Below, in pieces: positions 3,347-60,781 of a stretch of DNA of 64,000 nt (within the stretch, counting starts at the first letter, position 1; each line of letters starts with the position of its first letter). This DNA comes from a bacterium. Its GTDB lineage: Bacteria; Patescibacteriota; SICC01. Where the stretch lies: positions 18,970 through 82,969 of the forward strand of contig JAUYKS010000022.1 in NCBI GenBank assembly GCA_030699935.1, given 5' to 3'. Position numbers and translations under genes: made by a program. The notes beneath the pieces are model-generated. The model searched no databases. It was not told the DNA's origin and worked only from the letters and a program-made list of their open reading frames with translations.

Positions 3347-4048
3347 CTATACGACAGACCTGCGAATGCTAGACGAGACGGGTTCGCTATATTGCTCTGC
3401 GAATCGAGCGGCTAGTTTTGCACGAGCTTCGTCACCTGCCGCGGCAAAATCCAGTTCCTCTGGATACAGCACGGTCACGGAAACGACGGATACATCCCCA
3501 AGCGATAGCTCTAAGCGATCGGGTACTGTTTTTGATTTGACTCCAACCAGCGCACCAGATTGGCCCTCGGCGTACTTATAACCAACCGGGGTCCGCACTC
3601 CCCGCTGATCCATGGAGATAAGTGTGAGTTCGTCAAGAAGTTGCCGGAAATCACCGCGATGAGCAGCCTGTTCAGCAACGATACTGAGAGAATCAAATAC
3701 CCAGCTTCGAAAAGGGTTCTCGAAGTCTTCGTCCGTTTCAATATAAAACTCAAGACCAAATCCACTTCCTTCTGTCTTCAATGGGTGTGTGGTCGAAAAA
3801 GGATCGCTCAACCCATCCGTTGCTATGACAGTATTGCCATTAGGTAGCTTTATTTTTCGATATGCTTGTCTCAGATTTGGCCATTCGGGACCTCCTGCGA
3901 GAGTCGGGTTGAGGGCCGGAGCAAAATAATCCGGATCGACATCCCCGACGCCCTGCCAAAATTCAGTACGCAAACGGAAAGATTCCTGGAGTATTTTCTC
4001 CTCGTCGGACGGGACGGGGTCATTTCGATCATTCGGACTATCAATCAT
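3347..4048 (-). CDS. Hypothetical protein in a lower-GC segment, transcribed divergently from lexA
   Basis: 233-aa ORF. The roughly 50% GC island (3260-4250) contrasts with the roughly 65% GC of flanking genes. No family is recognisable with confidence (possibly a SUFU/immunity-like fold). It shares its promoter region with the lexA palindrome. Confidence 0.5.
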   Translation of the reverse strand: MIDSPNDRNDPVPSDEEKILQESFRLRTEFWQGVGDVDPDYFAPALNPTLAGGPEWPNLRQAYRKIKLPNGNTVIATDGLSDPFSTTHPLKTEGSGFGLEFYIETDEDFENPFRSWVFDSLSIVAEQAAHRGDFRQLLDELTLISMDQRGVRTPVGYKYAEGQSGALVGVKSKTVPDRLELSLGDVSVVSVTVLYPEELDFAAAGDEARAKLAARFAEQYSEPVSSSIRRSVV

Positions 4049-4251: not shown

Positions 4252-4884
4252 ATGAGCAACGAAGCACTTTCCCCGCGGCAGAAACAGACGTTCGACATCA
4301 TCCAGAAGCACATCAAGGACCAGGGCCTGCCGCCGACGATCCGCGAGATCATGGCGGCGCTGAAGGTGAACTACCCGCGCGGCGTGCAGCGTCACCTTGA
4401 GGCACTTGAGAAGAAAGGCTACATCACCCGCGACTCCCGCAGTCGCGGCATCACGATCGCGGATAAGTTCCGCCAGGTAGCCGCGGACGTTTCCGACGCC
4501 ATCGCGCGCATTCCGATCCTCGGCCGGATCCCGGCTGGCGGGCCGATGCTGGCCGAAGAGAACATCGAGGAGTGGGTGACTCTCCCGACCGACCTTACCA
4601 AGGGCAAGCGGGACGTATTCATCCTGCGAGCCCAGGGCGACTCGATGATCGGCGCCGGCATCTTCGACGGCGACCTGCTGATCTGCCAGCCGACGGACCA
4701 CGCCGAGAACGGCGACATCGTGGCCGCGTTGATCGGCGACGACGCTACGGTAAAGCGGCTGGTCAAACGGCGCGACGCGACCTACCTGCAGCCGGAGAAC
4801 CCCAAGTACGAGAACATCTACCCGGACCAGGATTGGAAAGTGCAAGGCAAGGTAATGGCGGTCGTCCGCCAACAGGTCCGCTGA
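4252..4884 (+). CDS. lexA: LexA repressor (S24 peptidase)
   Basis: 210 aa. The N-terminus is a winged HTH (PTIREIMAALKV...HLEALEKKGYI). The C-terminus is the S24 domain with the autocleavage region and catalytic Ser-Lys (AQGDSMIGAGI...TVKRL). Confidence 0.95.
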   Translation: MSNEALSPRQKQTFDIIQKHIKDQGLPPTIREIMAALKVNYPRGVQRHLEALEKKGYITRDSRSRGITIADKFRQVAADVSDAIARIPILGRIPAGGPMLAEENIEEWVTLPTDLTKGKRDVFILRAQGDSMIGAGIFDGDLLICQPTDHAENGDIVAALIGDDATVKRLVKRRDATYLQPENPKYENIYPDQDWKVQGKVMAVVRQQVR

Positions 4885-37658: not shown

Positions 37659-38513
37659 CTACGCCGCCGCGGTTATCGTGTCGGGATTCACCCGCACCCC
37701 CGGCCCCATCGTCGAGGCCAGGGTGACGCTACGGATGTACGTGCCTTTGGCGTCGGACGGCTTGGCGTCCCGGACGGCTCCGAAATAGGTCGCGACGTTC
37801 TTGGCGAGGTCCTCGGCCTTGAACGAGGTCTTCCCGACGCCGGCGTGGATGGTCGCGTCCTTGGCGACCCGGAACTCGATGCTGCCGGCCTTCACTTTCT
37901 TGATCGCACCCTCGACGTCTTCGGCCACGGTGCCGCTCTTCGGGTTCGGCATCAGGCCCTTCGGCCCGAGTACCTTGCCGAGCTTGCCGACCTCGGCCAT
38001 CTGGTCCGGCGACGCCACGGCAACGTCGAACCCGGTCCAGCCGTCCTTGAGCTTCTTGAGGGTATCTTCGTCCGAGACGAAATCGGCGCCGGCCTTCTTC
38101 GCCGCGGCGGCCTTGGCGGACGCCACGAACGCCATCACCTTGAGCTTCTTGCCGGTGCCGGCCGGTAGCTGCACGGTGCCGCGGACACTCTGCTCCGCTT
38201 CCCGCGCGTCGATGCCGAGCCGGATGTGTATCTCGACCGTGCCGTCGAACTTGGTCGTGCTGGTCTTCTGGACGAGCGCGACCGCCTCGTCGAGACCGTA
38301 TTGCTTGCCGTCCTCGACCTGCTCGGCGGCGGCGCGGTACCGCTTGCCGCGGAACTGCTCACCGGGATGGCGGGCGGGGGCGGCCACGGCCTGGGTGGCC
38401 GCTGTCTTGGCCGGTGCGCTCTTGGCAACCGGATTCTTCGGCGCAGCCTTGGGAGCCGCGGCCTTCGTTGCAGCCGGCTTCGCCGCTGCGGATGTCTTCT
38501 TTGCTTCTGCCAT
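37659..38513 (-). CDS. rplA: 50S ribosomal protein L1 with an Ala/Lys/Pro-rich N-terminal extension
   Basis: The core reads KFDGTVEIHIRLGID...KVLGPKGLMPNPKSGTV. It is preceded by a roughly 50-aa AKP-repeat tail (AAKPAATKAAAPKAAPK). Confidence 0.95.
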   Translation of the reverse strand: MAEAKKTSAAAKPAATKAAAPKAAPKNPVAKSAPAKTAATQAVAAPARHPGEQFRGKRYRAAAEQVEDGKQYGLDEAVALVQKTSTTKFDGTVEIHIRLGIDAREAEQSVRGTVQLPAGTGKKLKVMAFVASAKAAAAKKAGADFVSDEDTLKKLKDGWTGFDVAVASPDQMAEVGKLGKVLGPKGLMPNPKSGTVAEDVEGAIKKVKAGSIEFRVAKDATIHAGVGKTSFKAEDLAKNVATYFGAVRDAKPSDAKGTYIRSVTLASTMGPGVRVNPDTITAAA

Positions 38514-38610
38514 GATGATTTGCGGTGCCAGCGCCCCTGCTGCGGAGCTCCCGCGATTACTTATTCAGTCTACCCGAATCCGGCGCCCGGGTTCTCCTCA
38601 GCTGGGGATG

Positions 38611-39036
38611 CTACTTCTCGACCGTCACGCCCATCGAACGGGCGGTACCGGCGATGATCTTCTTGGCCGCCTCGAGATCGTTCGCCGAGAGGTCTTCCAT
38701 CTTCTCCTTGGCGATTTCCTCGAGCTGCGACTCCTTGATCTTGGCGACCTTGTTCTTGAGCGCGTTATCGCTGCCCTTGCCGAGCCCGATCGCCTTCTTG
38801 ATCAGGATCGCGGCCGGCGGCGTCTTGGTGATGAACGTAAACGTCCGGTCCTCGAAGATGGTCATCTCGACCGGGACGATCGTGTCGCCCATCTGCTTAG
38901 TCTGTTCGTTGAACGCCTTGCAGAAATCCATGATCTGGATGCCGTGCGGCCCCAGGGCGGTACCGACCGGCGGGGCGGGATTCGCCTTCCCGGCCGGGAT
39001 CTGCAACTTAACGACGGTCATTACTTTCTTAGCCAT
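38611..39036 (-). CDS. rplK: 50S ribosomal protein L11
   Basis: 141 aa. The sequence reads [43 protein letters not shown]. Confidence 0.97.
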
Positions 39037-39041
39037 ATCTC

Positions 39042-39308
39042 TTACTTACCTTTCAAAGTCACTTCAAGTTTAGCGATTTCCGAGTCACGCAATACTTTCA
39101 AAGGATTTTCTCCGTCATCAATCCGACGCGAAAGTTCTTCTAATGTCGATTCCGGCATCGAACCAATCAAGGTTTTCAAGGCTTCCCGATCTTCTTCGGG
39201 AAACTCGACGCCATACCGATTCGTCACCTCCTCATAGGCCTCAACGGCGCGTGCGGCCATCAGCTCTACGGCCATTTGTTGACCGGCAGTACGAGTCTCG
39301 GCACTCAT
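39042..39308 (-). CDS. Small acidic hypothetical protein (88 aa), third gene of the nusG-rplK cassette
   Basis: Its ATG overlaps the upstream stop (TAATG). It is lower-GC than its surroundings and begins [44 protein letters not shown]. No known family is recognised. Confidence 0.5.
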
Positions 39309-39607
39309 TAGAAATTCCTCGCTTCCGAGCTATAGTCTACGCCGGGTCCCATGCCTCGGAATTCGTCATCCACGGACGTTCGAGATGCTTCACGGATCCG
39401 ATGCGGCGGATCGACCGGTTCGCCTGCCGCGATGGCACGGGCTCGTTCCAAGCGTTCCCCTTGCGGGCCAGCCAGCGCTTCATCTAGATCCGCCTGATGC
39501 AGGACCGGAACTTCGGTGGCCTCCTGCCCGCGGCGCACCTCGGCCCGGGCCTCTTCCATTGTGACCCGCAGCAGCGTGTCATCCATATGCCGATCCATGT
39601 CGTTCAT
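39308..39607 (-). CDS. Small acidic hypothetical protein (99 aa), second gene of the nusG-rplK cassette
   Basis: It begins MNDMDRHMDDTLLRVTMEEARAEVRRGQE. Its start is preceded by the 19-bp repeat GCAAGTGAGGAAGATATGA, which supplies the RBS (GAGGAAG) and the ATG. Confidence 0.5.
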   Translation of the reverse strand: MNDMDRHMDDTLLRVTMEEARAEVRRGQEATEVPVLHQADLDEALAGPQGERLERARAIAAGEPVDPPHRIREASRTSVDDEFRGMGPGVDYSSEARNF

Positions 39608-39622
39608 ATCTTCCTCACTTGC

Positions 39623-39829
39623 TTAGCCATCAGTGCCTCCTCCTGACTGTTTCATACGTCCTTCTGCAGGATCGTAGCCGTACCGTTCTTGCCAAGACTT
39701 GCGCGACCTCTGAATCAACTGCTGGATTTTGGGATCGGCTGACGCGCGCTCATAGTCACCTCTATCGATAACGCCAACAAATCTAGGCTCAGACGCCTCA
39801 TGACCAATTCGCTTGTCAATCTCGCTCAT
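39623..39829 (-). CDS. Small hypothetical protein (68 aa), first gene of the nusG-rplK cassette
   Basis: It begins MSEIDKRIGHEASEPRFVGVIDRGDYERASADPKIQQLIQRS. Its ATG overlaps the nusG TGA stop (ATGA). The start context is the other copy of the 19-bp repeat. Confidence 0.5.
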   Translation of the reverse strand: MSEIDKRIGHEASEPRFVGVIDRGDYERASADPKIQQLIQRSRKSWQERYGYDPAEGRMKQSGGGTDG

Positions 39830-40368
39830 ATCTTCCTCACTTGCAGGAAGTCGAGCTCGACCGGAGTCTCGCGGCCGAACATGTTCACGAGTACCTTGAT
39901 CTTGCCCTTCGACTTGTCGACCTCGTCCACCTGTCCGTCGAAGTCCTTGAACGGCCCGTCGACGATGTTCACCGCCTCGCCCTTCTCCAAGTCGACCTCG
40001 TAGGTCGGCTCCTCGACGCCCATCCGTTGCTTGATCGTCTTGACCTCATCGTCACTCATCGGAGTCGGCGTGGTGCCGGTGCCGATGAAGCCGGTCACGT
40101 TCGGCGTGTTCCGGACCACGAACCAGGAATCCTCGGTGACGATCATGTCGACCAGGACGTAGCCCGGGAAGATCTTCTTGTCGACCGTCTTGCGTTTGCC
40201 GTGCTTGATCTCGATCTGCTTCTCGGTCGGCACGATCACGTCGAAGATCTTGTCGGCCATGTCCATCGACTCGATCCGCTGGCGGAGGTTTTCCGCCACC
40301 CGGTCTTCGTAACCGGAGTAAGTGTGGATCGCGTACCAGGATCGGTCTGTGGCTGGTTGTCTGGGCAT
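39826..40368 (-). CDS. nusG: Transcription termination/antitermination factor NusG
   Basis: The sequence reads MPRQPATDRSWYAIHTYSGYEDRVAENL (NGN domain) and, at the C-terminus, EAVNIVDGPFKDFDGQVDEVD (KOW domain). The start is chosen at the ATG 2 nt after the secE stop. The longer listed ORF (to 40452) overlaps secE. Confidence 0.9.
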   Translation of the reverse strand: MPRQPATDRSWYAIHTYSGYEDRVAENLRQRIESMDMADKIFDVIVPTEKQIEIKHGKRKTVDKKIFPGYVLVDMIVTEDSWFVVRNTPNVTGFIGTGTTPTPMSDDEVKTIKQRMGVEEPTYEVDLEKGEAVNIVDGPFKDFDGQVDEVDKSKGKIKVLVNMFGRETPVELDFLQVRKI

Positions 40369-40369
40369 G

Positions 40370-40639
40370 TTATTTCGTAGGTTGGGGTACTTGTACGGGT
40401 TGCTCGCCGGGCGGGATCTGGGCCGGCGGGACGTTCTGGGCGCCGCCGCCATCGGTCGCGTCCAGCACGGACTCGAGGCCTTGGTTGAGGCCGTAGTCCA
40501 CCACTCCCATGAACGCTCCGAACAGGATCGTCACGATCACGACGACCGTGGTGAGCCGGACCGTCCGGCGCCGCGTGGGCCAGACGACTTTGCTAAGCTC
40601 TACCCGCGCTTCTTTAAGAAACGAAAAAATCTTTCGCAC
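40370..40639 (-). CDS. secE: Preprotein translocase subunit SecE, with a C-terminal Pro/Gln-rich extension
   Basis: 89 aa. The sequence reads FLKEARVELSKVVWPTRRRTVRLTTVVVIVTILFGAFMGVVD. Confidence 0.85.
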   Translation of the reverse strand: MRKIFSFLKEARVELSKVVWPTRRRTVRLTTVVVIVTILFGAFMGVVDYGLNQGLESVLDATDGGGAQNVPPAQIPPGEQPVQVPQPTK

Positions 40640-40706
40640 GGGCTAATCATACCCCATTGTTCCGCGGCTTCGCCAGGGTTTCGGCCGGGGCTGGTACGAT
40701 GTCGGC

Positions 40707-41405
40707 GTGACGCCGTACGACGAAATCTCATTCGGGAGCCATCCCGACCGGCCGTATACGTTCATCAACATGGTGGCGACGGTCGATGGCAAGGCGGTCG
40801 ATCCCGGCACGCGGCAAGCGCCGTCCGGCGGACCGCACGACCGGCAGGCATTCCTGGCTTTGCGCGCCCATGCCGACGTGCTGATCTACGGCGCGACCAC
40901 CGGCAAGGACGTGCCGCCGGAAGAGTTCTTGGACGCCGACTTCCAAGCCGCGCGGAAGAAGGCGGGCCGGGATCCTCTGATGAAGTTCGTCCTGCTCTCG
41001 CACGGTGGACACCTTTCGACCGCCGACAAGATCTTCGGCAATCCGGACTTCACGCCGATCGTCTACGTACCCGAAGGCGTCGAGCTGGAACTGAAGAACG
41101 CGGACGTCCGGCACGCCGGACGCGGTGGCGGGCTCGACGTCGCCGCCATTGTGCAAGAGCTCAAACGGGACGGAGCCGACATCGCGATCTGCGAAGGTGG
41201 CCCGACCACCAACGAACCGTTCCTGCGGGACGGCCTGATCGACGAGTTCTTCCTGACCGTCTCACCGCGGATCCTCGGCGGCAACGCGGTCCTGACCGCG
41301 GTGGAAGGCGAGGTGCTCCCGCCGGAACGCGGCAAGCTGGAACTGGTTTCCGCGGAGCCCGCGGGTGACGAAGTATTTCTGCGGTACCGCGTGAGCGTTA
41401 AATGA
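40707..41405 (+). CDS. RibD C-terminal domain / DHFR-like reductase family protein
   Basis: 232 aa. The sequence reads YTFINMVATVDGKAVDPGT...ADVLIYGATT...IAICEGGPTTNEPFLRDGLIDEFFLTVSPRILGG. Confidence 0.75.
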   Translation: MTPYDEISFGSHPDRPYTFINMVATVDGKAVDPGTRQAPSGGPHDRQAFLALRAHADVLIYGATTGKDVPPEEFLDADFQAARKKAGRDPLMKFVLLSHGGHLSTADKIFGNPDFTPIVYVPEGVELELKNADVRHAGRGGGLDVAAIVQELKRDGADIAICEGGPTTNEPFLRDGLIDEFFLTVSPRILGGNAVLTAVEGEVLPPERGKLELVSAEPAGDEVFLRYRVSVK

Positions 41406-41416
41406 CGATGAGTTTT

Positions 41417-42178
41417 TTAACTGCGCTCTGGAAGGGATCGATCCGTCAGAGTGTCACTGATTCGCAACAGTAGGGCTTCCTTTTTTTCTCCATCAGGAAG
41501 ACTTTGGGTCCTCCTTAGGGCCTGGCCAAGTAAATCAAGGTTGCCCGTGCGAGCTGCGTCTTCGACAAATAAATCGACTGATGTCTTGCCCTGGATTTGC
41601 GCGGCTTCTCGAGCACTGACAGCAAGCGCTCTATTCACGGGCTCGACTGCATCCGCAAATTGCTGCAGACGAGTGCGTCTACCACGAACATCCATTTGCA
41701 GGATTAAAGACAGCGATTCTTCTAGCGCTTCCTCTGAACCGGAACTAATTCCCGCTTTCCTCAAGGCGACAGAGCGACAGCCGTGAGATTCTATTTGCCA
41801 AGCTGTCTCAAGGGCGAATTCGGGTACGACAGGTGCAGACACTCCCACCAATCGGCATAAACGGGCTTGCTGATTTGATCGATCAGAATGCTCGTTGATG
41901 GTTTCACGGATCCCTTCAAAGAACTCAATCCTACCGCTGGCGGTTGCGACTTCGAGTGCAAGATCAAGTTTCTGAGAAAATGCCTCTTCTTGCGACCCCT
42001 GCCCTAAAGGAAGTTCTTTAATGAGGTCGAACGCCTTGTCGGCGTCAACCTCGGCAAACCCACGAATGAGTTCACGGGCACTATTGGGGCCTGCACCCTC
42101 GAGCTCCTTTCTCCAGGCACCTGGTCCTTCCGTGTCGAGCTCGATAAACTTTCTACCCATAACAAAGAAGAGTAGCAA
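41417..42178 (-). CDS. Hypothetical protein in a lower-GC segment
   Basis: 253 aa, helical and acidic. No family is recognised. The GC drop relative to neighbours suggests horizontal acquisition. Confidence 0.5.
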   Translation of the reverse strand: MLLFFVMGRKFIELDTEGPGAWRKELEGAGPNSARELIRGFAEVDADKAFDLIKELPLGQGSQEEAFSQKLDLALEVATASGRIEFFEGIRETINEHSDRSNQQARLCRLVGVSAPVVPEFALETAWQIESHGCRSVALRKAGISSGSEEALEESLSLILQMDVRGRRTRLQQFADAVEPVNRALAVSAREAAQIQGKTSVDLFVEDAARTGNLDLLGQALRRTQSLPDGEKKEALLLRISDTLTDRSLPERS

Positions 42179-50081: not shown

Positions 50082-50186
50082 CTGGTTGTTGGTATCCGCG
50101 GTTTACCTGTTCTGAATATAACAGGATGCGAACCCACCGGTTTTCCCGATGTGGATACGTGGGTTTTATCTTGTTGTCTGCCTTTG

Positions 50187-50260
50187 CAGGGGCGGAGGGA
50201 TTCGAACCCCCGACACCGGGTTTTGGAGACCCGTGCTCTGCCAGACTGAGCTACGCCCCT
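50187..50260 (-). tRNA. tRNA-Trp (anticodon CCA)
   Basis: Manual fold of AGGGGCG-TA-GCTC-AGTCTGGCA-GAGC-A-CGGGT-CTCCAAA-ACCCG-GTGTC-GGGGG-TTCGAAT-CCCTC-CGCCCCT-G. CCA is not encoded. Confidence 0.9.
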
Positions 50261-50374
50261 AGGAGTGAGGGAAATGCAAAGTTTACTTTAGCATTTCCGA
50301 GCGACGACGGAGCGTATGCAATACGCCCCTGGGTACTCAAATAATACAGGCTGCGCGGCCGGACTGCCGAGCAG

Positions 50375-50536
50375 CTACTTCGTCTCTTTGTGCAGCATGT
50401 GCTTCTTGCAGCGCTTGCAGAACTTCTTGATCTCCAAGCGCTCCTGCGTGTTCCGCCGGTTCTTGGTGGTGTGATAGTTGTGCTCCTTGCACTCCGTGCA
50501 TTCGAGCGTGATCACCGGTCTGATGTCCTTAGCCAT
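50375..50536 (-). CDS. rpmG: 50S ribosomal protein L33
   Basis: Not in the ORF track because it is shorter than 60 aa. The reverse translation reads [53 protein letters not shown], a 53-aa protein with a Cys4 zinc ribbon. Confidence 0.9.
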
Positions 50537-50596
50537 ACCGAATTACGATATCATGAATCCGCGTCATCCCGCGCCCTTAGGACGCCGGACGGCCAA

Positions 50597-50670
50597 GCCG
50601 CCTTAGCTCAGCTGGCCAGAGCAACTGTTTTGTAAACAGTAGGTCCTCGGTTCGAATCCGAGAGGCGGCT
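50597..50670 (+). tRNA. tRNA-Thr (anticodon TGT)
   Basis: Manual fold of GCCGCCT-TA-GCTC-AGCTGGCCA-GAGC-A-ACTGT-TTTGTAA-ACAGT-AGGTC-CTCGG-TTCGAAT-CCGAG-AGGCGGC-T. Confidence 0.9.
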
Positions 50671-50673
50671 CAT

Positions 50674-51201
50674 TCAGCCGTAGAATTGCTCCGGATCAAT
50701 ACCGGCTTCTCTCATCTTTTCGGCAGCTTCTTCAAGCAGGGGATTCAGTCGATCCCATACGTGGTACTCAACTGCCATCAACCCAAGCGGATGTCCCGTA
50801 GCTTCGTCCAGGAGATCGGCGGCTGCGCCGCTTCGATCTACCTTGAGTAAACGAACGTACTCACGGTTCAGTGGCCCTACTTGATCCTTCTCAGCCAGAG
50901 CCTCTTTAATCTGTCCAACGAACTCTTCATTATCATCCAAGAACTTCACCCACACATCGCCAAGATCTTCAGCCTTCCCTAAGTAAACTTCGTAGAATTC
51001 GTTCCTTTCGCCGCCCACTTCTAGATGCCGCAGTTGCGAAAACAACAAATAGAAGTTGTTTCCGAACTGGATGGTACGCTCCCGGGTTTCCACTCGCGGA
51101 TCATCCATTGGAACTTTAGGAGCGTTCGCCGCTAACTCCCGCATTTCCGCGGAGGGTTCCAGCGGCTCGGCTCCGTCATGACCAGATTCAGGCGCATGCA
51201 T
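50674..51201 (-). CDS. Hypothetical protein in a lower-GC segment within the tRNA cluster
   Basis: 175 aa. No recognisable family. GC is lower than the flanking tRNAs and genes. Confidence 0.5.
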   Translation of the reverse strand: MHAPESGHDGAEPLEPSAEMRELAANAPKVPMDDPRVETRERTIQFGNNFYLLFSQLRHLEVGGERNEFYEVYLGKAEDLGDVWVKFLDDNEEFVGQIKEALAEKDQVGPLNREYVRLLKVDRSGAAADLLDEATGHPLGLMAVEYHVWDRLNPLLEEAAEKMREAGIDPEQFYG

Positions 51202-51243
51202 AGCTAGTAACTTTACCGTAATAAAGCCATTTTTTCAAGATTG

Positions 51244-51326
51244 TGCTGGGAGAGGGATTCGAACCCCCGAAGACATAAGTCGCCTGGTTTACAGCCAGGT
51301 GCGTTTGGCCGCTTCGCTATCCCAGC
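51244..51326 (-). tRNA. tRNA-Tyr (anticodon GTA), long variable arm
   Basis: Manual fold of GCTGGGA-TA-GCGAAGCGGCCAAACGC-A-CCTGG-CTGTAAA-CCAGG-CGACTTATGTCTTC-GGGGG-TTCGAAT-CCCTC-TCCCAGC-A. Confidence 0.9.
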
Positions 51327-51346
51327 GTGTTGTTAATACTACCCTG

Positions 51347-51420
51347 AGCCGAGAGGCGGATTCGAACCGCCGGCCTCCCGCTTACCATGCGGACGCTCTA
51401 ACCAACTGAGCTACCTCGGC
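51347..51420 (-). tRNA. tRNA-Thr (anticodon GGT)
   Basis: Manual fold of GCCGAGG-TA-GCTC-AGTTGGTTA-GAGC-G-TCCGC-ATGGTAA-GCGGG-AGGCC-GGCGG-TTCGAAT-CCGCC-TCTCGGC-T. Confidence 0.9.
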
Positions 51421-51992
51421 AATTGCTTCAGAATCCATTGTTGCAGATTACGGTTGAAATAGTACACACTCAGAACTCCGTATAAGCACCTTCTTTTGTA
51501 AGTGCCGGTGGATTGGGATGGCGAAACACGCGGGGGATAGAACTGCTCAGGCTTCATTCCTAGTTCATTAACCCAATATGAAAGCGCTACGTCTGGATCA
51601 AGGTCATTGAAAATCTGGATATTGAAGCATAAGTCGTCCGGGTTAACACCACAGATCCTAGTGAGAAACTTGAGAAATACCCGAATCAAGTAGGGGTCAG
51701 TATTTCCTAAGCGAACTTGGTTTTTGCTAGCCTTGTTTCCTTCACCCCAATACAGCCCGACCCCTAAACCATACAATCGCCACTCTTCCTTGGTCCGTGG
51801 CATCTTGACAGTAAATGGGTCTCCGTTCGGGTTATTTTTAAGATAAATCGCGTCGCTGATGGAACGCCGCTTGATGCCATACTTGTCCATCCAGTAGACG
51901 ACCTTATGTTCCGAGCATCCCAAAGCCAGCGATATATCGCGCATCGACGCCCCTCCTCTGTAGCGCTCCCGAAGGTCCTTTTCGGGAAGCAT
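51411..51992 (-). CDS. HTH + LAGLIDADG-like (homing-endonuclease-like) protein. It lies in a lower-GC segment, and its 3' end overlaps tRNA-Thr(GGT) by 10 nt.
   Basis: 193 aa. The N-terminal HTH reads RGGASMRDISLALGCSEHKVVYWMDKYGI. LYGLGVGLYWGEGNK...VRLGNTDPYLIRVFLKFL fits the LAGLIDADG helix pattern with Glu substituted for Asp. GC is about 50% versus about 65% for neighbours. Confidence 0.4.
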   Translation of the reverse strand: MLPEKDLRERYRGGASMRDISLALGCSEHKVVYWMDKYGIKRRSISDAIYLKNNPNGDPFTVKMPRTKEEWRLYGLGVGLYWGEGNKASKNQVRLGNTDPYLIRVFLKFLTRICGVNPDDLCFNIQIFNDLDPDVALSYWVNELGMKPEQFYPPRVSPSQSTGTYKRRCLYGVLSVYYFNRNLQQWILKQLPR

Positions 51993-57098: not shown

Positions 57099-58110
57099 TG
57101 TATGGTCGGCCCGCGTGAAAATGAAAAAGGCGCCGAACTAAGGCCACCCGTAATGAATTAACTTGGTGCTTGCCGGCGCCGATTTCCTAAAAAAGGTTTG
57201 GGGCTCCCCGAGCGATCCGGGAGCCCCGGCCCGTGCCATCTTGGGATGTGCCGGGCAGCAGGCTTGGCGCCACCGGTCTGAGTCTGACCTAGTCGAGCAT
57301 TTGTTTTGATTTTTTCTCGCAGGGAGACTCAGAACGGTGAAGCTAAGGGTTGCTGCCCGGCACGGGTAGGGACAAACGTGAATGGTCTTGAAACGTTGTG
57401 TTTCGGTTTTGGGAGGGTTGAGGGCGCACCGTGATGCGGCCTCTTTGGTTTTTGTTTGTCCGTTCGTCCGCTGTGGGTGGGTGGGATCGGCACCCGCTCG
57501 AACAGCAGGGCGGCGAGCACCTTCTGGCTAGCGATATGCGGTCATGAAGGTGTTGTTTCTTTTTGATTTTCCTTCGCAGAGGACGCTGCGTCTTAAGGGA
57601 AAGTGCTCGACTCCCCGCCGTTCGGCTGCGGTTCCGGCTTGGAACCGTGCGTGGCATGGGCCTTATTTTGAATGTGCTTGGGGGACTAAAAACCCCGATG
57701 TCGCGGGCCTTTTGCGGCCACCGCTCAATCGGGATTAAGTCAACGTAGCACCGTGAACAAGACTTGTCAACACTTATGCATAATATTTGTTCAATCAGGC
57801 ACGGTAAGGCATGGGCCAGGCACAAATAAACATGATTTAGGCAAAAACAGTTACGAAGAAAGCAGCGGATTTGGGTTTGAAACCCGCTGCTTGTGTGTCG
57901 GTCCATACCTTTGAATCCATACCCTTGGATCATCTTCTGTAAAGCCTCGTCAAATGCCTGACGGCACCTCCCCTGACGAGACCTCGGACGGATGGCGGGG
58001 AGCCGGATGCGGCGCATCCGGAGATAGATGGATCACCTCCTCAGTCGTCGACGCCGATCAGGACGGCAGGCGCAGGCAAATTACATCACCACCTTTCGAC
58101 AACTTGGAGG
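57099..58110. other. About 1.0 kb of non-coding, highly structured sequence upstream of lgt. It is a candidate for one or more structured ncRNAs or leader elements.
   Basis: No credible ORF is present; the listed 57343..58017(-) ORF is Arg/Cys/Ser-rich garbage. Several hairpins are perfect: GGGGCTCCC-N10-GGGAGCCCC at 57200-57227; a 13-bp long-range pairing of GTGCCGGGCAGCA at 57248-57260 with TGCTGCCCGGCAC at 57351-57363; CGGTTCCGGCTTGGAACCG; and GGGGGACTAAAAACCCC. A tandem-duplicated T-rich motif TTTTGATTTTyCyTCGCAGrGGA sits at about 57303 and 57561. Confidence 0.5.
57868..57896 (-). terminator. Intrinsic terminator-like hairpin
   Basis: The minus strand reads GCAGCGG-GTTTCAAACCCAAAT-CCGCTGC followed by TTTCTTCGTAACTGTTTTTGCC. 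Confidence 0.5.
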
Positions 58111-60550: not shown

Positions 60551-60781
60551 CTACTTGCTGCGTAGCGTGTTAATCAGCCAGACAACCTCGACGACTATCG
60601 CTATGGCTCCAGCAATGAGGTAATTCACCGGAGTAAAGATCACGGATTCGCTTCCCCACGCCATCGCAACGTCTGTCGACCAAGCCAGTCCAAGCGATAA
60701 CGCAGCCGTCAAAGGCAATGCCAGCAAGATTAGAATTGCTTTGGTGGTCTTGCTAATGCCATTGGATGATTGCTGGGTCAC
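60551..60781 (-). CDS. Small two-TM membrane protein
   Basis: 76 aa. The two TM segments are AILILLALPLTAALSLGLAW and LIAGAIAIVVEVVWLI. Confidence 0.45.
   Translation of the reverse strand: MTQQSSNGISKTTKAILILLALPLTAALSLGLAWSTDVAMAWGSESVIFTPVNYLIAGAIAIVVEVVWLINTLRSK

Follow-up and report, generated by a model that had tools for sequence, protein, structure and literature searches.

We analyzed 64,000 nucleotides (nt) of contig JAUYKS010000022.1 (GenBank assembly GCA_030699935.1, positions 18,970 to 82,969 of the forward strand), hereafter called the window, and within it the interval between nusG and rplK, which contains three small open reading frames (ORFs) named here g1, g2 and g3. Judged by its NusG, the host belongs to the Saccharimonadia, in the candidate phyla radiation (CPR, or Patescibacteria). 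Our analysis indicates that this interval, which we call the slot, is probably a promoterless, translationally coupled locus of orphan small proteins, restricted to the lineage and turned over by recombination in its conserved flanks. It holds a lineage-restricted, fast-diverging and mosaic family of proteins of 60 to 99 amino acids (aa), mostly acidic and helical, and comparison of strains with nearly identical flanks shows that its content differs between them.

The array and its two flanks lie on the minus strand. Upstream is nusG (39826..40368, 180 aa, Pfam NusG at 2.5e-30 plus KOW), and downstream is rplK (38611..39036), which encodes the 141-aa protein L11 (L11 domains at 1e-27 and 7e-26); both flanks are conserved. 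Between them are found g1 (39623..39829, 68 aa), g2 (39308..39607, 99 aa) and g3 (39042..39308, 88 aa). The original prediction, made from the sequence of the window, had proposed these three ORFs and their translational coupling through overlapping start and stop codons, and the gene order, coordinates and junctions were all borne out: the g1 ATG overlaps the nusG stop (ATGA), g1 and g2 are separated by 15 nt with GAGGAAG preceding the g2 ATG, g2 and g3 overlap by one base (TAATG), and 5 nt separate the g3 stop from the rplK start. The first slot gene takes both its Shine-Dalgarno sequence (SD) and its ATG from the last codons of nusG (QVRKI*). On the coding strand of the nusG-rplK interval, neither a promoter-like nor a terminator-like site was found. 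The slot genes would ride the secE-nusG-rplKA message, and ribosomes would be handed along this chain of junctions from nusG through g1, g2 and g3 to rplK. The three proteins had also been described as acidic, which holds for g2 and g3 (pI 4.7 and 4.6) and not for g1 (pI 6.6). A leader-RNA reading, for example an L1-binding autoregulatory site upstream of rplK, was considered and dropped, Rfam giving no match at E <= 1 on either strand of positions 38300-40800 (an unlisted motif being possible).

The slot was compared in nine genomes of the window's own high-GC lineage, whose nusG genes are 75 to 97% identical at the nucleotide level. Eight of the nine are occupied, and far from sharing a conserved set of three genes, each has a content of its own. 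The window carries g1, g2 and g3, and the others a single ORF, of 84 aa in L162, 90 aa in L167, 93 aa in L001, 90 aa in L002, 92 aa in L081, 78 aa in L004 and 60 aa, hydrophobic, in L082. The remaining genome, the outgroup L003, is the most distant (75 to 79% nusG identity) and its slot is empty, a single T standing between the TGA of nusG and the ATG of rplK; relative to this related genome, the three ORFs are indeed extra, as predicted. Of the eight occupied genomes, seven have a first slot ORF that begins on the nusG stop via ATGA, while L004 uses TGATG followed by the start codons of rplK, and the last slot ORF terminates on the rplK ATG or a few nucleotides before it.

The most telling comparison is that of the window with L162. 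NusG and L11 are identical between the two genomes, and the DNA of the flanks is 96 to 97% identical, with a synonymous divergence (dS) of 0.10 to 0.16. However, the slot measures 795 nt with three ORFs in the window, and 249 nt with one unrelated ORF in L162. This ORF cannot be aligned with g1, g2 or g3, save for some 20 nt past the ATG and the last few codons, and homology resumes exactly at the rplK ATG. Since homology breaks so sharply between near-identical flanks, point divergence is insufficient, and recombinational replacement or rearrangement is needed to account for the difference. Recombination anchored in the highly conserved flanks would be the means by which slot versions are replaced or rearranged. 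Conservation of the flanks extends to other genomes: NusG is 89 to 94% identical to that of the window in L001 to L004, and L11 is identical across the 75 codons available for L167. Several unrelated gene types are moreover found at this one site, namely the acidic helical ORFs, the L081 ORF, the hydrophobic L082 ORF and, in L003, nothing at all.

Most slot ORFs are nevertheless related to one another, as measured by z-scores from shuffle-calibrated local alignments. The strongest link is between g2 and the single L167 ORF (z 19.8, 51 to 56% identity), followed by g2 and the L004 ORF (z 12), where the N-terminal module of the latter is 69% identical to g2 over 26 aa. The L001 and L004 ORFs are then linked at z 8.3, g3 and the L002 ORF at z 6.3 (a common module of 18 aa, 61% identical), g1 and the L004 ORF at z 5.3, g1 and g2 at z 3.7, and g1 and the L001 ORF at z 3.2. 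The L004 ORF is a mosaic, its g2-like module being followed by one that resembles g1 and the L001 ORF. At the N-terminus, g1 begins with MSE as does the L162 ORF, and the L002 ORF with MSD. In L167, the version with g2 only, the rplK ATG occupies the place that the g3 ATG has in the window, and the 3' ends of the two g2 genes are homologous up to that ATG.

Outside this slot, relatives are almost entirely lacking. No paralogue was found elsewhere in the window or in the locus flanks. In a word-indexed search of 5.8 billion proteins, g2 and g3 matched only themselves, and g1 had no match. An exhaustive HMMER search of 1.84 billion representatives with g2 returned one true relative, P0003 (56% identity), which is the L167 slot gene; three other matches, to long repeat proteins of which two are WD40-like, were rejected as spurious. 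Only noise was obtained from Pfam (g1 to g3 and six other slot ORFs), from PADLOC (eight ORFs) and from NCBIfam and PHROGs (g1 to g3). IMG/VR scans with g2 and g3 gave no match, nor did a tblastn of g3 against phage genomes, nor did searching the PDB sequences with a profile built from g2, P0003 and the L004 ORF. The flanking proteins of the window, NusG and L11, are themselves singletons in their 90% clusters. The prediction had stated that the three ORFs have no recognisable family: no curated family is matched, as it said, but relatives do exist, limited to the same slot in other genomes.

How the three-gene array of the window arose can be read in part from a scar that it contains. The 19-mer GCAAGTGAGGAAGATATGA forms the end of nusG together with the g1 ATG, which overlaps the TGA stop (39826..39844, minus strand), and a perfect duplicate of this nusG end is present at 39604..39622 (minus strand), where it gives g2 its SD (GAGGAAG) and its ATG. 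These two copies had been reported in the prediction, and they are the only ones in the window, even when three mismatches are allowed; none of 100 shuffles contained any match. Likeness between the two sites continues to 29 nt, at 90% identity. The nusG genes of L001, L002 and L162 end in the same 19-mer, and L082 retains its last 18 nt. Because both the 19-mer and its 12-nt core, which comprises the ribosome-binding site, are confined to these two sites in the window, the repeat is not a general ribosome-binding site, and we retain the view that it is a recombination footprint rather than the result of common signal usage.

The second copy of the 19-mer is directly preceded by ATGGCTAAG (39622..39630, minus strand), a 9-nt remnant of the very start of rplK, with one G common to both elements. 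There are three copies of ATGGCTAAG in the window, compared with 0.17 expected, and the other relevant copy is the real rplK start. A strong SD (GGAGGAGG) lies upstream of the remnant. The composite thus reads, in order, SD, rplK start, last 18 to 19 nt of nusG and g2 ATG, with the junction at ATGGCTAAG|CAAGTGAGG. As the rplK start directly precedes the nusG end, we interpret the scar as the place where two versions of the interval were joined end to end. The g1 stop falls within ATGGCTAA, just as the stop of the L162 ORF falls within the real rplK start, so g1 and its 3' end resemble a complete slot version up to codon 3 of rplK; the C-termini of the two proteins are alike as well (GGTDG* and GGAHG*). 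The second unit reads as a g2-type version, because in L167 a gene of this type stands alone directly after nusG.

The scar therefore suggests that a version made of nusG end, g1 and rplK start was joined to another made of nusG end, g2, possibly g3, and rplK. The join would be an illegitimate junction with 1 nt of microhomology, connecting codon 3 of rplK to the last 18 to 19 nt of nusG, and since an SD and an ATG come with the nusG end, such a join left all the genes open to translation. More speculatively, g3 might have been added by another join of this type, made right at the ATG. L004 presents a related picture: a 9-nt direct repeat of ATGGCTAAG flanks its cassette (4540-4800), the first copy starting the 78-aa ORF (MAK) on the nusG stop and the second the real rplK. 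This repeat is a further, third footprint of this type, and corresponds on the rplK side to the nusG-end repeat of the window. The idea that a cassette had been inserted is thus kept in part, given the recombination scar and the extra ORFs relative to the outgroup, but a single three-gene cassette entering a pristine junction is not supported: the slot is filled throughout the eight ingroup genomes, L167 has a g2-like gene and L002 a g3-like one, each on its own, and the scar, which had been placed as the footprint of the cassette insertion, lies between g1 and g2 and marks the join of two alternative versions.

Two routes to such a join are considered. The first is unequal crossover with a short junction, for which there is a precedent in the same neighbourhood: at the sigH-nusG-rplK locus of Staphylococcus aureus, tandem duplications with short junctions fuse rplK or nusG codons to the upstream gene (PMC3486894). 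There, as here, early codons of rplK or nusG are fused upstream with very short or no homology, and the ribosome-binding site and ATG of the downstream gene are reused. However, the S. aureus units are identical and unstable and yield a chimeric SigH (PMC3486894), whereas in the window the units differ in sequence, the junction is situated in a spacer of 15 nt that does not code for protein, and the arrangement is fixed across four assemblies. In the second route, incoming DNA would be anchored in rplK and undergo homology-facilitated illegitimate recombination, a process defined in the context of natural transformation (PMC3240628). Saccharibacteria are naturally competent, as shown for cultivated members and not for the lineage of the window (PMC10633639). 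Such a process could account for one end being seamless in rplK and the other being an illegitimate join with a single nucleotide of microhomology, but no donor was identified, and the scar would look no different after unequal crossover between sister chromosomes.

The S. aureus precedent also raises the possibility that no foreign version was ever involved, and that g1, g2 and g3 are paralogues of a single resident gene, duplicated in tandem in place and then diverged. The junction between rplK start and nusG end is the exact product expected from a tandem duplication of the interval, the downstream end of the unit being joined to its upstream end (39604-39630), and the first 29 nt of g1 and g2, together with their weak protein similarity, point in the same direction. 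The two units, however, are not copies of each other: likeness stops after these 29 nt, and a 19-mer that is identical at 19 of 19 positions, followed by DNA that cannot be aligned, is hard to explain under uniform divergence. Furthermore, the best relatives of g2 and g3 are not their neighbours in the array but the single-gene versions of L167 and L002. We therefore regard duplication in place as rather unlikely, and favor the joining of two distinct slot versions.

Integron arrays came to mind as well, since they also consist of promoterless small ORFs in one orientation, expressed from upstream and variable in content between strains. Here, however, what is repeated is the end of a housekeeping gene, copied in direct orientation. 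The slot has no neighbouring integrase or attC-like inverted repeats: no pair of inverted-repeat arms was found within it (scan of 38500-40700) and no recombinase is present among the neighbouring genes, so that we rejected integron cassettes.

An array with such a junction might also be a chimera, assembled from two strain variants that co-exist in the sample. Two short Logan contigs, L163 and L165, begin inside the nusG end, 20 to 35 nt upstream of the first 19-mer; this hints at branching of the assembly graph near the slot, which could reflect co-existing slot versions. A chimera, however, would require reads that run from 9 nt of rplK straight into the nusG end, and a repeat of 19 nt is below the usual k-mer length of assemblers. 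Above all, three other assemblies (GCA_034375485.1, Logan SRR13727534 and Logan SRR26726065) contain this array at 100% or 99.9% identity, and a chimera would have had to arise identically in four independent assemblies. Because of these three further occurrences we do not consider the array an assembly artefact, a chimera being extremely improbable. In the NCBI record, g2 and g3 are annotated as hypothetical proteins and g1 is not annotated; the accessions run without a gap from L11 (MDP4000502) through the two hypothetical proteins (presumably 503 and 504) to NusG (505), and g1 is absent from a collection of 15 billion proteins. It is likely a missed small gene.

The question arises as to whether the products of the slot matter at all. 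The ORFs might be no more than junk DNA kept open so that ribosomes leaving nusG reach the rplK start, the peptides themselves being irrelevant. Each slot version is indeed an ORF, or a chain of ORFs, that fills the gap from nusG stop to rplK start, and among them are unrelated sequences and one small membrane-type peptide; in addition, codon usage is unadapted, and g1 is unannotated. A single ORF spans the whole gap in seven of seven single-ORF versions, but in GC-rich DNA the shuffle p-value of each version is 0.014 to 0.23, and the gap-filling ORFs count as evidence of coding jointly, not singly.

Four lines of evidence argue against irrelevant peptides. First, in the 26-codon module common to g2 and the L004 ORF, 18 of 26 residues are identical, and 15 of these 18 are specified by different codons, with 11, 4 and 21 differences at the first, second and third codon positions, respectively; the module common to the L001 and L004 ORFs has 14 identical residues out of 28, and the codons differ for 12 of these 14. 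Because residues are kept while codons differ, synonymous change being near saturation, the module peptide is under selection. Second, the ratio of non-synonymous to synonymous divergence (dN/dS) between g2 and the L167 ORF is 0.42. Third, the GC content of the three codon positions (GC1, GC2 and GC3) shows a pattern like that of coding sequence: all nine slot ORFs have a higher GC1 than GC2, and in six of them GC3 falls between the two. Fourth, AlphaFold2 produces confident helices from single sequences: for g2, helices at residues 2-30, 38-45 and 48-60 followed by a disordered tail (predicted local distance difference test (pLDDT) score 70, predicted template-modelling score (pTM) 0.27), and for g3 a four-helix protein (pLDDT 77, pTM 0.59), although no fold informative about g1 to g3 emerged. 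We therefore tend to disfavor pure junk, on account of these signs of selection and of the filling of the slot throughout the ingroup, and consider the idea of spacer ORFs an unlikely one. The products of the slot are most likely non-essential accessory cytoplasmic proteins, under some purifying selection yet free to diversify.

The composition of the slot ORFs sets them apart from their surroundings. They had been described as lower in GC than the ribosomal genes; this does not hold for the total GC of g2 (0.62), which is not below that of rplK (0.60), but it clearly holds at third positions. GC3 is 0.49, 0.64 and 0.48 in g1, g2 and g3, respectively, compared with 0.88 to 0.89 in nusG, rplK and rplA and 0.83 to 0.91 in neighbouring host genes. 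The same deficit is seen in every relative, with 0.32 to 0.74 in slot ORFs and 0.69 to 0.91 in the nusG of the same genome.

As to what these proteins do, our confidence in any specific cellular role is low, and three proposals were weighed. A single function tied to NusG or L11 is disfavored because of the hydrophobic version in L082 and the unrelated one in L081. The overlap of g2 and g3 by one base, and sizes typical of such pairs, suggested a type II toxin-antitoxin pair or another two-gene addiction or defence module. However, both proteins are acidic, no toxin, antitoxin or defence profile was found at E <= 1 beyond noise in Pfam, NCBIfam, PHROGs or PADLOC, and the pair does not travel together, a g2-like gene being alone in L167 and the g3-like module being part of the single L002 ORF; such a module is very improbable. 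A second proposal, by analogy, is a polymorphic neutralizer or immunity locus, in which small acidic proteins would block strain-specific phage factors or toxins, perhaps directed at transcription and translation, with cassettes piled up in the manner of orphan immunity genes. In favor of this are the small size of the proteins, their mosaic and strain-specific nature and the acidity of most of them. The second cassette is also preceded by a fragment of the conserved upstream gene, as are the orphan cassettes of polymorphic toxin systems such as contact-dependent inhibition and Rhs, where a 3'-end fragment of the upstream gene also precedes genes for small, acidic and polymorphic proteins. Here, in contrast, neither a toxin gene nor a toxin domain was found, the gene upstream is nusG, and the repeat extends over just 19 nt; PADLOC, Pfam and PHROGs gave no matches, no phage or viral relatives were found, and one version is a hydrophobic peptide. 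We consider such an immunity locus improbable. Equally tentative is our third proposal, in which the slot would be a dedicated diversifying locus and more than an insertion site that is tolerated, kept filled throughout the ingroup because its proteins are made in step with NusG and L11, these proteins acting on the transcription-translation machinery, or shielding it from strain-specific antagonists of phage or host origin. The essential coupled junction would serve as a safe harbour, proof against deletion, and the nusG-end repeat would allow cassettes to stack and to be shed. This too is doubtful.

Against the general reading of the slot as a coupled locus of orphan proteins turned over by recombination, several points must be set. 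Translation of g1, g2 and g3 is something we infer from sequence, and the NCBI annotation does not call g1. The ORFs of L081 and L082 have no detectable kinship to the others, so that one family does not cover every version. Neither a g1-only nor a g2 plus g3-only parental version is present among the nine genomes, and the order of events presented above is a reconstruction. Lastly, dS between g2 and the L167 ORF is 1.1, compared with 0.25 to 0.27 in the flanks, but this excess could partly reflect codon bias slowing synonymous change in nusG and rplK and not a greater age of the slot alleles; since codon bias depresses dS in the flanks, we no longer take the elevated value as proof that the alleles are older than the flanks.

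The nusG-rplK adjacency itself is less inviolable in CPR bacteria than the prediction assumed. Among 153 CPR loci containing both genes, the median gap is 67 nt, but it is at least 200 nt in 18 loci and at least 500 nt in seven. Six Parcubacteria loci (L021, L025, L035, L049, L061 and L064) have a conserved ORF of about 180 aa between the two genes; that of L021, the only one of the six that was scanned, is CarS-like, of the CDP-archaeol synthase family (1e-29). In L095 the junction contains a 23S_rRNA_IVP protein, a four-helix bundle (2e-21). A gap of 1.1 kb, with a 154-aa ORF of no known family, was also observed in L067. The Parcubacteria and L095 insertions interrupt the same junction as in the window, but they belong to conserved, recognisable families and are separated from their neighbours by spacers of about 10 to 130 nt, unlike the variable orphans of the slot, which are fitted codon to codon.

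Other features of the region were noted. The slot has SecE, NusG, L11, L1, dCTP deaminase, CYTH, RibD_C and MurB proteins for neighbours, secE being at 40639-40370 and rplA at 37659-38513 (both minus strand). An in-frame ATG located 84 nt upstream of the nusG start would give a NusG of 208 aa (39826-40452) overlapping secE; the relatives and the NCBI record use the 180-aa start. L1 bears an Ala/Lys-rich N-terminal extension of about 55 aa, and N-terminal insertions of 40 to 130 aa in uL1 are known for Saccharibacteria (PMC9297842). Between murB and the RibD_C gene lies a 253-aa ORF (41417-42178, minus strand; GC 0.52, GC3 0.47) without a Pfam match; in L167 these two genes abut, and L169 has a 247-aa ORF at the same place. 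The 253-aa ORF is thus another insertion specific to the strain, no more than 3 kb away from the slot; a flanking duplication was looked for around it and none was found. Further ORFs with a GC3 of 0.45 to 0.6 (core genes being above 0.8) are located at 3347-4048, 50126-51992, 57343-58017 and 60551-60781, along with several of 57 to 76 aa. These are probably other accessory or orphan genes; none resembles the slot ORFs.

A variable accessory hotspot with orphan genes is a known kind of locus, and this case does not resolve a long-standing question. As in the hotspots known as flexible genomic islets, content differs between strains whose flanks are almost the same. ORFan genes are short, AT-richer than their host and fast-evolving; the slot genes likewise are short (60 to 99 aa) and of atypical composition, with low GC3, and have relatives in a narrow lineage only. 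The slot differs from both in its position, inside an essential operon junction where translation is coupled and where the outgroup has a single nucleotide, and in that its versions are promoterless and fitted exactly from nusG stop to rplK start, most of them belonging to a mosaic family specific to the slot. What is unusual here is this codon-to-codon fit in a core operon junction, together with a readable scar.

One of the tightest junctions of a core operon can thus host a polymorphic orphan locus with translational coupling unbroken, and the unusually legible scar shows how such arrays grow. For the record of this genome, g1 is flagged as a gene missed by the NCBI annotation. More generally, CPR proteomes are largely unannotated, and the differences between strains may govern interactions with hosts or phages; in this respect the nusG-rplK slot offers variable proteins that form a small and clearly bounded set and are presumably produced in large amounts.

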